NCBI RefSeq assembly: GCF_049969415.1
Contig: NZ_JBMFOX010000003.1
Location: 1-64,000, forward strand
Direction: 5' to 3'
Source of the DNA: Candidatus Hadarchaeum sp.
GTDB lineage: Archaea > Hadarchaeota > Hadarchaeia > Hadarchaeales > Hadarchaeaceae
DNA: 64,000 bases
Position numbers and translations under genes: made by a program. Numbering within the stretch: position 1 is the first letter of the stretch; every line of letters begins with the position of its first letter. Positions 26,535 to 61,032 of this stretch are shown piece after piece. The notes beneath the pieces are model-generated. The model was given only the letters and a program-made list of their open reading frames with translations, had not been told where the DNA came from and ran no database searches.

Positions 26535-26646
26535 TGGCGGGCCCGGTGGGATTCGAACCCACGACCGATCGGTTAGCTCCCAATCGACCGTTAAGAGCCG
26601 ATTGCTTTTGGCCGGAAACCCGACTGCCAGACTGAGCCACGGGCCC
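26535..26646 (-). tRNA. tRNA-Lys(CTT) with two introns (22/23 and 37/38)
   Basis: Removing 26607-26623 and 26574-26591 gives GGGCCCGTGGCTCAGTCTGGCAGAGCAATCGGCTCTTAACCGATCGGTCGTGGGTTCGAATCCCACCGGGCCCGCCA; BHB motif at both introns. Confidence 0.93.
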
Positions 26647-45150: not shown

Positions 45151-45287
45151 AGCCCGGTGGGGTAGACCGACTGGGGTCGGGCCCAATGGTCAATCCTGCG
45201 GGCCTTTGGAGCCTGCGACGGCGGAGGGCAATAACCCGCCGAATTCGAACGTCGACGGGTCGACCGAATTTCCGCCCCGGGCTACCA
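45151..45287 (+). tRNA. tRNA-Gln(TTG) with three introns (15/16, 53/54, 59/60)
   Basis: Removing 45166-45186, 45225-45243 and 45250-45270 gives AGCCCGGTGGGGTAGTGGTCAATCCTGCGGGCCTTTGGAGCCTGCGACGGCGGTTCGAATCCGCCCCGGGCTACCA; A1-U72 pair as in archaeal tRNA-Gln. Confidence 0.92.
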
Positions 45288-47102: not shown

Positions 47103-47235
47103 AGCCCCGTGGGGTAGACCCGCCGCTGGCGGGGCCCATCGGTCAATCCTGGCGGGCACCAGCTGGCCGCAATCTGGACCCGCTGACCCCGGTTCGAAAT
47201 CGACAGCGTCGACGGGAATCCGGGCGGGGCTACCA
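47103..47235 (+). tRNA. tRNA-Gln(CTG) with three introns (15/16, 32/33, 59/60)
   Basis: Removing 47118-47139, 47158-47172 and 47199-47218 gives AGCCCCGTGGGGTAGCGGTCAATCCTGGCGGGCTCTGGACCCGCTGACCCCGGTTCGAATCCGGGCGGGGCTACCA. Confidence 0.92.
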
Positions 47236-55440: not shown

Positions 55441-55716
55441 TTGGTGGGATACGTGACGCTGGCCGTGACCAAGACCTCCATCAAGGGGCAATTGGTAATC
55501 CCGAAGGAGATAAGGCGGGAACTCGGGATAAAAGAGGGCCAGTTGATGCTGGTTTACGCCGCCGGCGACAGGATCATCTTGAAAAAGGTGGAAGCTCCAG
55601 AGCCGGGTCTGTTTTCAATGCTGGCCGAGCCCATTAGGGCAAAAGCCAGAGAACGGAGAGTTACCCGAAAGGATGTCGAGCGCGCGATCAGAGAGATTCG
55701 TGGGCATGCGGAATGA
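55441..55716 (+). CDS. AbrB/MazE/SpoVT antitoxin
   Basis: KGQLVIPKEIRRELGIKEG. Confidence 0.9.
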   Translation: MVGYVTLAVTKTSIKGQLVIPKEIRRELGIKEGQLMLVYAAGDRIILKKVEAPEPGLFSMLAEPIRAKARERRVTRKDVERAIREIRGHAE

Positions 55717-56126
55717 AGCCTGTGATAGTGGTAGCCGACACGAACGTCCTCGTTTCCTCATTGCTTTGGGAAGGAAACGAATCAAAAATCGTGGAGTTAG
55801 CGGAAATAGGAAAGATAAAGCTACTCACATCAGCTGCACTTCTGGACGAGCTAAAAAAAGTTTTGATGTACGAGAGGTTTGGCTTGGACGAAAAGACGGT
55901 TGATGATAGTGTCAAATACATTTTGACTATCTCCGACATCATCTCGCCAAAGCGCAGTGTCAGGGTAATCCATGAAGATCCGGCCGATAATGAGGTGCTG
56001 GGGTGCGCCTTGGAGGGAAAGGCAAGGTACATCGTTTCTGGTGACAAGCATCTGCCGCGATTGAAGGAATTTGGGAGAATCAAGATAGTACGCGCCAAGG
56101 AACTTCTAAACATCCTCAAGATTTAA
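55713..56126 (+). CDS. PIN-domain toxin
   Basis: VADTNVLVS, EDPADN, IVSGDKHL; overlaps the antitoxin stop. Confidence 0.9.
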   Translation: MKPVIVVADTNVLVSSLLWEGNESKIVELAEIGKIKLLTSAALLDELKKVLMYERFGLDEKTVDDSVKYILTISDIISPKRSVRVIHEDPADNEVLGCALEGKARYIVSGDKHLPRLKEFGRIKIVRAKELLNILKI

Positions 56127-56388
56127 CCGTGCCAAATCCCCATGCATCGCGTGGGTTGCACTGCGCTGCCCAACATCCTCGCTTTGCTGGGGCAGAGTAT
56201 GGTTTGATTTCTATCTCATTTTGTCGGTTTAATTTTTCGCGATGGCGATGGTAGGGCAACAACCGGCGTTTTGAGGGATATAAACCTAGATGGAAATTCA
56301 AACCGTGCTCAAAAATCGATCCTTGTCAATAGGCCTCCTTTGACAGAAATCCGCCGGTATCTTCCTCATTCGGTTCAGTGAAAAAAGG

Positions 56389-56558
56389 TGCGGGGGGAGG
56401 GATTTGAACCCTCAACATTCGGATATCAGACCTAGGAGTCTTCAGTTTTGCCCCTTGAGAGCTGTCCCCCAAGGTCCGACACTATTGAGCCAGGTTTTAC
56501 CTGGTCTCCCATTTCAATCCGGTGGCGGCTTTCCACCAGATGGTTGAGTTACCCCCGC
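56389..56558 (-). tRNA. tRNA-Phe(GAA) with four introns (17/17a, 22/23, 30/31, 37/38)
   Basis: Removing 56512-56541, 56484-56505, 56447-56475 and 56425-56439 gives the 74-nt GCGGGGGTAACTCAACCTGGGAGAGTGTCGGACTGAAGATCCGAATGTTGAGGGTTCAAATCCCTCCCCCCGCA with all four stems paired. Confidence 0.9.
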
Positions 56559-56695
56559 ACCTTCAAATTCTCTGTAGTTTGAAGTTAAAAAATGCTACCC
56601 CACCGCTAGATGTGCGGATGCTCCACGACCAGATAAAACCGGCAGAGTTCGATAAAGGATACGGATTATAAGACCGGGCGCGATAACCTAAGCTG

Positions 56696-58042
56696 ATGGC
56701 GATGACCGGCTACCGGGGTGAGGTGCAGAGAATTTTGCGCGCGGCGTCGGTGAAGGTGGGCGACAAGATCAAGGCGGTGAGCCGCGGCCGCACCTATGTC
56801 GGCGTCCTGATGCCCCGCACCGAGCTGGGCGATCCCGATCATCTGGTCCTCAAGCTGGACAACGGCTACAACATCGGGGTGAAGGTCGGCCGGAGCACCA
56901 AGGTGGCCTTGCTCGAGAGCCGGGAACTGCCGAAGCTGGCGGTGCCCAAACCCGCGGTAGTTCCGGACGCGAGCAAGCCTCGGGTAACGATAGTCGGCAC
57001 CGGGGGAACCATTGCAAGTCGGGTCGATTACCGCACCGGAGCGGTCTATCCCGCGTTCACCGCCGAGGACATCTACAACGCGGTTCCGGAGATAGCTGAG
57101 ATTGCCAACGTCAAGGTGGTCCAGGCCTGCAACGTCTTCAGCGAGCACATGATCCCGGAGCTTTGGGCGAAGGTAGCCCGGATTGTGGCCAAGGAGATCA
57201 ACGACGGGGCCACGGGAGTCGTGGTGGCCCATGGCACCGATACCATGGGGTACACCGCCGCCGCGCTGAGCTTCATGCTTCAGGGATTGTTTCGCCCCGT
57301 GGTTCTGGTCGGGTCGCAGAGGTCCTCCGACCGGCCGAGCAGCGACGCCGCCCTGAACCTGATTTCAGCGGTCGCGGTCGCCGCCAAATCGGACATCGCC
57401 GAGGTGACCGTGGTCATGCACGGGTCAACCGAGGATGATCATTGTCTGATCCACCGGGGAACCAAGGTTCGGAAGTGCCACACCAGTCGCCGGGATGCCT
57501 TTCAGAGCATCAATGATATCCCTTTGGGCATGGTCAGAGAGGGCCAGATCGTGATGTTCCGCGATGACTACCGCCGCGCTGGTTCCGCGGGCCGGGTCAG
57601 GGTGCAGGACAGGCTGGAGAAGAGGGTGGCCTTGGTGAAGACTACACCGGGATTGCCCGCAAGTGTCATCAAGGGCATCATCGCTTCTGGCGACCGCGGA
57701 ATTGTCCTTGAGGGCACGGGGCTGGGCCACGTCCCCCAGACCCTGTTTGAGGGCATTGAACTGGCCCAGAGAAGGAAGATCCCAGTGGTGATGACATCGC
57801 AGTGCCTCTGGGGCAGGGTCGACATGAACGTTTACTCCACGGGCCGTGAACTGCTCCAGCTCGGCGTCATTCCTGCGGAGGACATGCTTCCTGAGGTGGC
57901 TTGGGTGAAGCTGATGTGGGTGCTGGGCAGGACTAGAGATCTGGAAAGGGTTGCCAGGTTGATGCGGCAGAACCTGGCCGGGGAGATAACGCCGCGAACC
58001 CGACCCGATGCTTTTCTTAAACCTCTCTTCACGCCCGGATAG
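56696..58042 (+). CDS. gatD: Glu-tRNA(Gln) amidotransferase subunit D
   Basis: KLDNGYNIG, TGGTIASRVDY, HGTDTM, QRSSDRPSSD. Confidence 0.96.
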   Translation: MAMTGYRGEVQRILRAASVKVGDKIKAVSRGRTYVGVLMPRTELGDPDHLVLKLDNGYNIGVKVGRSTKVALLESRELPKLAVPKPAVVPDASKPRVTIVGTGGTIASRVDYRTGAVYPAFTAEDIYNAVPEIAEIANVKVVQACNVFSEHMIPELWAKVARIVAKEINDGATGVVVAHGTDTMGYTAAALSFMLQGLFRPVVLVGSQRSSDRPSSDAALNLISAVAVAAKSDIAEVTVVMHGSTEDDHCLIHRGTKVRKCHTSRRDAFQSINDIPLGMVREGQIVMFRDDYRRAGSAGRVRVQDRLEKRVALVKTTPGLPASVIKGIIASGDRGIVLEGTGLGHVPQTLFEGIELAQRRKIPVVMTSQCLWGRVDMNVYSTGRELLQLGVIPAEDMLPEVAWVKLMWVLGRTRDLERVARLMRQNLAGEITPRTRPDAFLKPLFTPG

Positions 58043-59124: not shown

Positions 59125-61032
59125 ATGGATTTGATGGGAAAAACGGACATCGATTATCGCGGGATAGGGCTGCGCGTGGGCTTTGAGATCCACCAGGAGC
59201 TGGAAACGTCCAAGCTCTTCTGCAGCTGTCCCTCCCGGCTCCGTGACGATGTCCCGCGCCTGCAGGTGAGGCGGAGGTTGCGCCCGACCCAGAGCGAGCT
59301 GGGCGAGGTCGACCGCGCTGCCCTTGCCGAGGCGATCAAGGGCAAGGCCTTCAACTATCAGGTTTACCCCGACACCGTCTGCTTGGTCGAGCTTGATGAG
59401 GAGCCGCCCCACCCGGTGAATGAGGAGGCGCTCGATATCGCGCTCGAGGTAGCGCTCCTGCTTGAAGCCAGCCCTGTCGACGAGGTCCACGTGATGAGGA
59501 AGATCGTCATCGACGGCAGCAACACCTGCGGCTTCCAGCGGACGATGCTTGTGGCCACCGATGGCAGCCTCATGATCGACGGCAGGAAAATCGACATCCC
59601 GACGATATGCTTGGAGGAGGATGCCGCTAGGAAGGTGGGTGAGAACGGCGAGGTGGTGGAATACCGTTTGGACCGGCTTGGAATTCCGCTCATCGAGATT
59701 GCCACCGGACCGGACTTTACTGACCCGGAAAATCCGGCCAAGGCGGCGCTTTACATCGGGCAGTTGCTTCGCGCCACCGGTCGGGTGAAACGTGGTCTGG
59801 GGACCATCCGGCAGGACATCAACATCTCCATCGCCGGTGGTGCCCGCCAGGAGATCAAGGGGGTGCAGGAGCTGGGCCTCATCACCACCGTGATCGAGCG
59901 GGAGGTGCAGCGGCAGCTGGCGCTTCTTGAGATTCGTGAGGAGCTGAAGCGGCGCGGCGCGAGGGGAGCGGAGAAAAGAATAGTCGAGGTCACGGAGTTC
60001 TTCTCGAAAACCGGTTCCAAGCTGATTCAGAGGGCACTGGCGGCGGGAGGTTCGGTGCTGGCGTTGAAGCTGGAGAAGTTCGCCGGTCTCCTCGGCAGGG
60101 AGCTTCAGCCCGGGCGAAGGTTTGGAACCGAGCTGTCTGACCGGGCCAAGACCTACGGCAAGGTCGGTGGAATCTTTCACACTGACGAACTTCCCGGCTA
60201 CGGCATCTCCGCCGAGGAAGTAGCCCAAGTGAGGCAGAAGCTAGGTGCCGGAGAACTGGACGCCGTGGTGCTGGTCGCAGAGCGGAGAGAGAAAGCGGTG
60301 GCAGCTCTCGAGGCGGTAGCGGATCGGGCCAATGAGGCGCTGGCCGGAGTTCCCGAGGAAACGCGTCGGGCTTTGGAAGATGGCAACACCGAGTTCATGC
60401 GTCCCCTGCCCGGGGCCAGTCGCATGTATCCCGAGACGGACATCCCGCCCATCCCGATAACCCGAACCAGGATTAAAAAAATCAGGGGCCAGCTCCCCGA
60501 GCTGCCGGAGAGGACGCGGGGCAGGCTCGTGGAAAAATACCGGCTGAGCCAGAACTTGGCCGAGCGGCTGAGCCTTTCCGAGAACCTGAGCTTGTTTGAG
60601 GAGCTGGTAGCAGAGACAAATGCCGACCCGACCTTGGTGGCGGCAACTCTGGAGGAGACCCTCGTCAGCCTGCGCCGCGAGGGGATCAAAGTCGAGGGGA
60701 TAACCAAGGAGCTGCTGCTGGAGATGTTCCGGTGGGTGGCGGACGGAAAGCTGGCCAAGGAGGCTGTCCCCGAGGTGCTCAGGCTGGCGGCGCAGGGCCT
60801 TGGCGTTCCGGAGGCAGTGGAGAGGCTCGGGCTCTCCCGGCTCAGCCCCGAGGAATTGGAAAGGCTGGTCGCCGCGACCGTCGCCGAGAATCGGAAGCTG
60901 GTTCAGGAGAGAGGGATGAATGCCGTTGACCCGCTCATGGGCCTTCTGATGGCCAAGGTCAGGGGAAGGGCCGACGGAAGATTGGTCCATGAGCTTTTGA
61001 GAAAGGAGATTGAAAATTTCCTCAACACCTGA
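59125..61032 (+). CDS. gatE: Glu-tRNA(Gln) amidotransferase subunit E
   Basis: GFEIHQEL, DEEPPH, IDGSNTCGFQRT, RMYPETD. Confidence 0.96.
   Translation: MDLMGKTDIDYRGIGLRVGFEIHQELETSKLFCSCPSRLRDDVPRLQVRRRLRPTQSELGEVDRAALAEAIKGKAFNYQVYPDTVCLVELDEEPPHPVNEEALDIALEVALLLEASPVDEVHVMRKIVIDGSNTCGFQRTMLVATDGSLMIDGRKIDIPTICLEEDAARKVGENGEVVEYRLDRLGIPLIEIATGPDFTDPENPAKAALYIGQLLRATGRVKRGLGTIRQDINISIAGGARQEIKGVQELGLITTVIEREVQRQLALLEIREELKRRGARGAEKRIVEVTEFFSKTGSKLIQRALAAGGSVLALKLEKFAGLLGRELQPGRRFGTELSDRAKTYGKVGGIFHTDELPGYGISAEEVAQVRQKLGAGELDAVVLVAERREKAVAALEAVADRANEALAGVPEETRRALEDGNTEFMRPLPGASRMYPETDIPPIPITRTRIKKIRGQLPELPERTRGRLVEKYRLSQNLAERLSLSENLSLFEELVAETNADPTLVAATLEETLVSLRREGIKVEGITKELLLEMFRWVADGKLAKEAVPEVLRLAAQGLGVPEAVERLGLSRLSPEELERLVAATVAENRKLVQERGMNAVDPLMGLLMAKVRGRADGRLVHELLRKEIENFLNT

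Follow-up and report, generated by a model that had tools for sequence, protein, structure and literature searches.

The minus strand of the window, by which we refer to the whole stretch of 64,000 nt that was analysed, carries a gene for tRNA-Phe(GAA) that is interrupted by four introns (Table 1). When the window was cut by script at the respective coordinates, introns accounted for 96 of the 170 nt of the gene and the joined exons amounted to 74 nt. Exon lengths, intron lengths and the intron share match exactly those given in a preliminary description of this DNA, which had left the strand unstated. The positions of the introns within the tRNA refer to a cloverleaf that was numbered by hand.

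Upstream of the gene we found an A/T-rich box, TTTTTTAAC, which is a candidate archaeal TATA-like promoter element; similar boxes are visible in the upstream flanks of tRNA-Phe orthologues. A six-T run follows the gene shortly after A73 and is likely to represent a transcription stop, judging from its sequence. The trinucleotide directly 3' of the gene is CCT and not CCA, while CCA starts 22 of 27 orthologue flanks. The gene is located between a PIN-domain gene and the genes for GatD and GatE (55713-56126, 56696-58042 and 59125-61032 of the window, all on the plus strand), the latter two of which encode the archaeal Glu-tRNA(Gln) amidotransferase.

Neighbouring genes match Candidatus Hadarchaeum records at 84-88% amino-acid identity. 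The source assembly (Hadarchaeum, Hadesarchaea; hereafter G000) is metagenome-derived, comprises 1.47 Mb in 138 contigs and is 95.25% complete. A search of sequencing runs for the stretch gave six DNA runs, mostly from hot-spring metagenomes and with small word shares (best 0.22), and no RNA run containing the locus.

Table 1. Components and flanking elements of the tRNA-Phe(GAA) gene, in window coordinates.
Feature	Position	Strand	Remarks
Whole tRNA-Phe(GAA) gene	56389..56558	-	170 nt, position 1 to discriminator A73
Exon 1	56542..56558	-	17 nt; acceptor 5' strand, D-stem 5' strand and start of D loop
Intron 1	56512..56541	-	30 nt; in D loop; HBh' motif
Exon 2	56506..56511	-	6 nt, TGGGAG; 4 H-helix nt and 2 bulge nt of intron 2
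Intron 2	56484..56505	-	22 nt; junction of D loop and D-stem 3' strand; HBh' motif
Exon 3	56476..56483	-	8 nt; D-stem 3' strand, position 26 and start of anticodon stem
Intron 3	56447..56475	-	29 nt; within anticodon stem, tRNA positions 30/31
Exon 4	56440..56446	-	7 nt, ACTGAAG; holds anticodon GAA
Intron 4	56425..56439	-	15 nt; canonical 37/38 site; weak hBH motif
Exon 5	56389..56424	-	36 nt; anticodon-stem 3' strand, variable loop, T arm, acceptor 3' strand and A73
A/T-rich box TTTTTTAAC	56584..56592	-	26-34 nt upstream of position 1; read from sequence
Six-T run	56381..56386	-	two bases past A73; read from sequence

Detection of the gene and identity of the predicted spliced tRNA

Standard tools did not report the gene. 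ARAGORN found no tRNA in the 170 nt, either with or without its intron option, and called only a tRNA-His in the window. Rfam at the gathering threshold returned two other tRNAs of the window and nothing at the locus, where its permissive mode yielded only a T-arm fragment of 14.1 bits (E = 4.1). For these two programs, the expectation that default annotation would miss the gene was thus borne out.

We also searched the 95.25%-complete G000 assembly for a second tRNA-Phe and found none: ARAGORN -i made 50 tRNA calls with no Phe among them, Rfam produced 45 tRNA matches, none of which lies at the locus, and blastn-short with the spliced sequence recovered only the gene's own exons and T-arm look-alikes. 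With 95% completeness and 138 contigs, the assembly leaves room for a second copy on missing DNA.

Upon removal of the introns a canonical tRNA is restored, which is one of the criteria for archaeal bulge-helix-bulge (BHB) tRNA introns. ARAGORN called the spliced 74-nt product a tRNA-Phe(GAA), and its minimum-energy fold calculated with ViennaRNA is a cloverleaf at -30.8 kcal/mol, so that both programs agree with the paired 74-nt cloverleaf proposed earlier. In a spliced alignment to relatives, the product was identical at 74/74 positions (alignment score 148) to the intronless tRNA-Phe of the relative G024. The latter is recognized over its full length by the Rfam model RF00005 with 69.6 bits (E = 1.1e-14); this score was used in place of the spliced product's own covariance-model score.

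In yeast and E. coli, the identity set of tRNA-Phe consists of the anticodon GAA, the discriminator A73 and G20. In the spliced product, GAA occupies positions 34-36, the discriminator base is A and the D loop carries GGG at positions 18-20; the complete set is present.

In addition, we searched for introns ab initio, with the acceptor stem and the T arm as the sole input. The solver, which is heuristic, lists BHB-like candidates and then scores the remaining cloverleaf; the same four introns came out at the top of 233 candidate solutions. Slicing and solver thereby reproduced what had been described before, namely a tRNA-Phe(GAA) gene that has four introns of the BHB type and whose micro-exons measure 6, 8 and 7 nt. 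The top ab initio solution and the 74/74 match to the G024 gene show that the four-intron reading is more than chance. Chance resemblance or an artefact of assembly is further contradicted by loci of 169-170 nt at 95-96% identity in four other genomes of the genus and by more diverged four-intron tRNA-Phe loci in four other genera, and the unspliced 170-nt precursor folds better than 200 of 200 shuffled sequences (z = -4.48). We regard this explanation as effectively refuted.

Intron states and covariation across Hadarchaeales

We compared the gene with tRNA-Phe genes in the order, for which 65 genomes including G000 were considered. The gene could be resolved in 38 of them; the other 27 gave no clear match or were outside the survey. 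Four introns at the same four sites are present in nine genomes from five genera (G000, G001, G002, G003, G007, G018, G019, G009 and G042). Two genomes have three introns and lack the one at 37/38, two have only the two D-arm introns, 15 have only the two anticodon-arm introns, and ten have no intron in tRNA-Phe. Genes with four, two and zero introns occur within the window's own genus alone.

Three relatives of genus g9 were resolved via the alignment columns of the G000 exons, and the 3' exon of G042 was read by eye and then confirmed in the same way. One match, L030 in G029, proved to be a tRNA-Leu and was excluded from the counts. The four-intron orthologue of G042 (L147:213-400, minus strand) differs in having U rather than A as discriminator base and TTCGATC as T loop, which might reflect genuine variation, decay of this copy or an error in the sequence.

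From this distribution we infer that the four-intron state was inherited and has been lost piecemeal in relatives. The occurrence of four, three, two (as two different pairs) or no introns at four fixed sites within one order provides a clean series for studying loss and gain of tRNA introns.

We next asked whether the helices at the splice sites are maintained. In a set of 11 aligned precursors with 53 pairs (the four BHB motifs plus the acceptor and T stems), 92.7% of the cells were paired, compared to 39.5-56.8% with partners slid by 1-3 columns, and 18 pairs had changed on both sides compared to 10.2 +/- 1.8 in shuffles, a value reached in 0 of 500 shuffles; as the relatives are not independent, these figures describe helix maintenance and are not probabilities. 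The central helices (H) of introns 1-3 were paired in 100% of the cells, while that of intron 4 was paired in 66.7% (11 relatives). At the inner end of the intron 1 central helix, for example, exon and intron are joined by an A-U pair in six sequences and by G-C in five. Positional tables built from 10, 9, 20 and 16 distinct sequences for sites 1 to 4, respectively, gave the same pattern, with the intron 4 helix being the least conserved. The compensatory changes at the sequence level support the predicted helices of introns 1-3.

These comparisons also bear on the idea that the gene is a decaying or silent pseudogene and that a working tRNA-Phe resides on unassembled DNA. The 95% completeness of the assembly would allow for this, and the CCT that replaces the CCA of most orthologue flanks would be in line with decay. 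However, the exons match, without a single difference, an intronless orthologue that looks functional, and the four-intron form has been kept in nine genomes of five genera with compensatory changes in exon-intron as well as intron-intron helices. Moreover, those four-intron genomes showed no second tRNA-Phe among the matches listed. We consider a pseudogene very improbable. With high confidence, we instead interpret the locus as a genuine and almost certainly functional tRNA-Phe gene, the transcript of which would mature by excision of four introns.

Splice motifs, splicing enzymes and probable order of removal

All eight predicted junctions, as placed by the spliced product, follow the second nucleotide of a 3-nt bulge. 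The central helices comprise TCAA/TTGA at intron 1 (4/4 pairs), TGGG/CTCA at intron 2 (4/4 pairs, one G-U), TGTC/GGCA at intron 3 (4/4 pairs, one G-U) and CTGA/TCTG at intron 4 (3/4 pairs, with a U-U mismatch). Helices, the single mismatch and bulge placement are as described in the preliminary account. The motifs differ in their flanking helices. Introns 1, 2 and 3 possess an intron-internal helix (h') of 8, 6 and 9 bp, whereas their outer helix between exons (h) comprises 1 bp, 0-1 bp and 2-3 bp, respectively. They are relaxed HBh' motifs with a strong intron-internal helix and nearly no exon-exon helix. The 37/38 intron, intron 4, represents a weak hBH motif with an h' of 2 bp. Its outer helix is the anticodon stem, which has 1 bp in the primary transcript and 5 bp once intron 3 is removed. 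Since removal of intron 3 restores the anticodon stem, the outer helix of intron 4 depends on prior removal of intron 3.

In each of the four introns, h or h' spans at least 2 bp, in addition to the 4-bp central helix and the two opposite 3-nt bulges by which BHB tRNA introns are defined. Under the strict hBHBh' definition, i.e. h and h' of at least 2 bp and a perfect 3-4-3 core, introns 1, 2 and 4 drop out and only intron 3 is retained.

The motifs are packed as tightly as their geometry permits. The 6-nt exon 2 is the arithmetic minimum of the motif, consisting of four helix and two bulge bases, and its first base doubles as the third base of the 3' bulge of intron 1. Exon 4 (7 nt) can be written as 1 + 4 + 2 and exon 3 (8 nt) as 1 + 1 + 4 + 2. 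Furthermore, the outer helix of intron 3 occupies two bases that are required by the central helix of intron 4. Because neighbouring motifs abut or share nucleotides, as read from the sequence, the four motifs are never all canonical simultaneously.

At both 37 and 70 C, we calculated how probable each central helix is in the free-RNA ensembles (ViennaRNA) of the 15 intermediates, and we also determined minimum-energy folds. The probabilities reached at most ~0.37 for introns 1 and 3 and at most 0.04 for intron 2, and were 0.00 for intron 4. As they are low across the 15 intermediates, no splicing order can be read from these thermodynamic data.

The genome encodes both enzymes expected for BHB introns, a splicing endonuclease (EndA) and an RtcB-type ligase, each by a single gene. 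RtcB matches PF01139 with 594.6 bits. EndA (contig C9, 179 aa) matches PF02778 and PF01974, the latter with 115.2 bits. Among solved structures, its best matches are M. kandleri EndA (5x89) and the alpha4 enzyme of M. jannaschii (1a79). It aligns end to end, within 2 residues, with the 171-aa chain of 1a79; the C-terminal domain is free of gaps and the Tyr/His/Lys motif is aligned. An L3 insertion, as ascribed to Hadesarchaeal EndA, was not seen in comparison with the M. jannaschii protein.

A second EndA copy was not detected in G000 by tblastn. The best other match (C44, E = 0.49) lies in a 324-aa ORF and was treated as noise rather than as a second subunit. Five relatives, four of which have a four-intron tRNA-Phe and one of which is a 3-contig genome, contain exactly one EndA gene each above the Pfam cut-off. 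The EndA proteins of the six genomes have 179-186 aa and, beyond the N-terminus, align with no gap longer than a single residue. Based on these sequence features, i.e. a single gene for ~170-180 aa with both domains and the catalytic triad, the enzyme is predicted to be of the alpha4 type.

According to the available text of published reviews, alpha4 EndA cuts only canonical BHB motifs (PMC4033280). An alpha4-like enzyme together with outer helices of 0-1 bp at introns 1 and 2 sits uneasily with this view. The locus offers a compact natural test of the strict-BHB rule for alpha4 enzymes, as it combines four graded motifs and exons as short as 6 nt within 170 nt with one small enzyme.

Taken together, sequence, structure and gene content suggest the following course of maturation. 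A 170-nt precursor would be transcribed from the A/T-rich box ~30 nt upstream, EndA would excise the four introns at the BHB motifs by cutting after the second base of each 3-nt bulge beside a 4-bp helix, and RtcB would then join the exon pieces. Removal would probably be stepwise, with intron 3 preceding intron 4, as far as can be derived from helix arithmetic. Stepwise removal is suggested because the motifs abut or share nucleotides and because the exons of 6-8 nt would not survive cleavage of two adjacent introns ahead of ligation: an exon between two cut introns would be held to an excised intron by only 4 bp.

Closer inspection of intron 4 revealed that it is complementary to a segment of the D loop (56506-56511 plus 56542-56544, minus strand) over 9 contiguous bp including one G-U. 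Across 18 distinct pairs from orthologues, the longest helix that intron 4 can form with the D loop measures 5-9 bp, with a shuffle p <= 0.05 in 12 of the 18. Where the D loop loses a C, intron 4 shifts from ...CCCAGG to ...CCCAGT. On the 11-sequence alignment, 89.9% of the cells of this helix were paired compared to 24-49% when slid, a level that shuffles reached in 87 of 500 cases. Minimum-energy folds of splicing intermediates pair the D arm with intron 4. A like pairing between intron and D loop was absent from the nine other tRNAs of G000 with a canonical intron.

It is conceivable, although we would not consider it likely, that a plain alpha4-type EndA without specificity loop gained broad HBh' specificity in Hadarchaeales, that the four abutting motifs form one after another, and that the conserved pairing of intron 4 with the D loop acts as a folding lock which sets the order of removal and guards the micro-exons. 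If true, the splicing programme of this tRNA would be built in and encoded by its own RNA.

Alternatively, the gene may be real and needed, with the lone alpha4-type EndA being insufficient for all four excisions, so that the relaxed junctions of introns 1, 2 or 4 need an extra factor such as a second divergent subunit, an RNA chaperone or another nuclease. The minimal outer helices of introns 1 and 2, the mismatched central helix of intron 4 and the low probability of the BHB helices in the free-RNA ensemble would agree with such a factor, as would the strictness described for alpha4 enzymes in the available text of PMC4033280 and the lack of an insertion in G000 EndA relative to the strict M. 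jannaschii enzyme. Against it stand the single EndA-domain gene of G000 with one match each in five relatives and the fact that ~20 further non-canonical introns in G000 share the HBh' pattern, which suggests one general enzyme. In addition, Kaneta et al. 2018, in the text available, link the alpha4 enzymes of Hadesarchaea and DPANN to disrupted tRNA genes (PMC5829648). On balance, the involvement of an extra factor appears improbable to us.

Other intron-rich tRNAs and known systems

The four-intron tRNA-Phe is not an isolated case of intron richness in G000. We resolved the tRNA genes of the genome with the same heuristic solver and checked each product with ARAGORN. Next to tRNA-Phe with four introns, the tRNAs for Trp, Tyr, Gln(TTG) and Gln(CTG) have three; Lys(CTT), one Met, Arg(TCG), Arg(TCT), Pro(CGG) and Asn have two, and many others have one or none. 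No tRNA gene with more than four introns was found in G000; neither Thr(GGT) nor a third CAT tRNA could be located there. A total of 236 relaxed T-arm anchors in G000 led to no new tRNA gene. A CCA-anchored search recovered Tyr, Gln(TTG) and a candidate that later turned out to be Gln(CTG). The long anchors C2:45758, C5:13015, C5:18604 and C45:5877 were rejected as tRNAs by ARAGORN.

Besides tRNA-Phe, three of these genes lie in the window. The tRNA-Gln(TTG) at 45151-45284 (plus strand) has three non-canonical introns of 21, 19 and 21 nt, one of which is located in the T loop; it was missed by ARAGORN and Rfam, and ARAGORN confirms its spliced form. The tRNA-Gln(CTG) at 47103-47232 (plus strand) has introns of 22, 15 and 20 nt, the 15-nt one after position 32, and its spliced form is likewise confirmed by ARAGORN. 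At 26538-26646 (minus strand), where Rfam reports a tRNA, the ARAGORN call of an Arg(CCG) with one intron was replaced by tRNA-Lys(CTT), obtained once two introns, a 17-nt one in the D arm and an 18-nt canonical one, had been resolved.

Elsewhere in the genome, tRNA-Tyr(GTA) (C6:21768-21900, minus strand) has three introns, at 37/38, in the variable region and in the T loop, and was missed by both ARAGORN and Rfam. The tRNA-Trp(CCA) with three introns at C18:4353-4505 (minus strand) replaces an ARAGORN call of a Pro with a 65-nt intron. Intronless tRNAs for Ile(GAT) and Ala(TGC) are found on the small contigs C74, C136, C69 and C50 and are adjacent on C74 and C136. A side-by-side pair of Ile(GAT) and Ala(TGC) is the arrangement of bacterial rRNA operon spacers. 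These contigs probably belong to the 2% of the bin that is contamination.

The sole tRNA-Phe found in G000, and at least the tRNA-Tyr and both tRNA-Gln, are thus invisible to ARAGORN and Rfam. As a consequence of such hidden multi-intron genes, metagenome-assembled genomes of this group will seem to lack essential tRNAs.

Regarding the number of introns, reviews up to 2021 and the tRNAscan-SE 2.0 paper, in the text available, give three as the maximum per archaeal tRNA (PMC4033280, PMC4390854, PMC8450103). The preliminary description had named multi-intron tRNAs as best known from Thermoproteales with up to three introns; these sources uphold the number, whereas the framing by Thermoproteales does not apply to a gene from a Hadarchaeum. 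Its suggestion that four introns may be a record for an archaeal tRNA has to be given up: according to the accessible part of a recent preprint, a single Asgard tRNA gene can contain as many as five intervening sequences (bioRxiv, 15 Oct 2026, 10.64898/2026.10.13.758758). The same part gives 2.2 intervening sequences per gene for three Asgard families and names D-arm insertions as those that annotators miss, and Asgard genomes with over half of the tRNA genes being multi-intron have been reported (Valentin-Alvarado et al. 2024).

Apart from this statement on Asgard archaea, a full-text literature search, which covered main texts and not supplements, returned no paper on the present gene or on a "four-intron" archaeal tRNA by that phrase. 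The tRNA-Phe described here hence does not have the largest intron number on record but is an extreme, well-supported case of a precedented archaeal habit, found in a lineage whose splicing enzyme is of another type. What makes the locus valuable is its bearing on mechanism and annotation.

Close counterparts are the multi-intron tRNAs of Thermoproteales, such as tRNA-Glu(UUC) of Pyrobaculum calidifontis and tRNA-Pro(UGG) of P. islandicum. These also combine short BHB-type introns at non-canonical sites with one at 37/38, have relaxed motifs and are missed by standard finders, as stated in the available text of PMC4390854, where the examples have three introns compared to four here. Hadarchaeota, in contrast, are another phylum, a lineage on the euryarchaeal side, and while the EndA of Thermoproteales is a two-subunit (alpha-beta)2 enzyme with a specificity loop, we found one 179-aa gene of the alpha4 type.

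The Asgard tRNAs of the 2026 preprint share annotator-missed D-arm insertions, many multi-intron genes and BHB-compatible boundaries with the genome studied here. They belong to another phylum, and most Asgard genomes of that study (44/60) have two EndA paralogues compared to one in G000. In its accessible part, this census does not extend to Hadarchaeota ('hadarchae', 0 occurrences).

A member of the same class of organism, Hadesarchaea archaeon YNP_N21, was treated by Kaneta et al. 2018 (PMC5829648). There, an L3 loop insertion is attributed to the enzyme, unlike in G000 EndA, and 'four introns' has 0 occurrences in the text available.

A further parallel is provided by the nuclear tRNAs of Cyanidioschyzon merolae, which, as far as the available text of PMC3728597 goes, have introns in the D arm and at 37/38 and additionally in the T arm. 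In contrast to the system described here, C. merolae is a eukaryote with an unknown endonuclease and has three introns at most. RT-PCR data from this alga, reported in the same text, revealed an ordered removal of introns in which the 37/38 intron is the last to be excised (PMC3728597).
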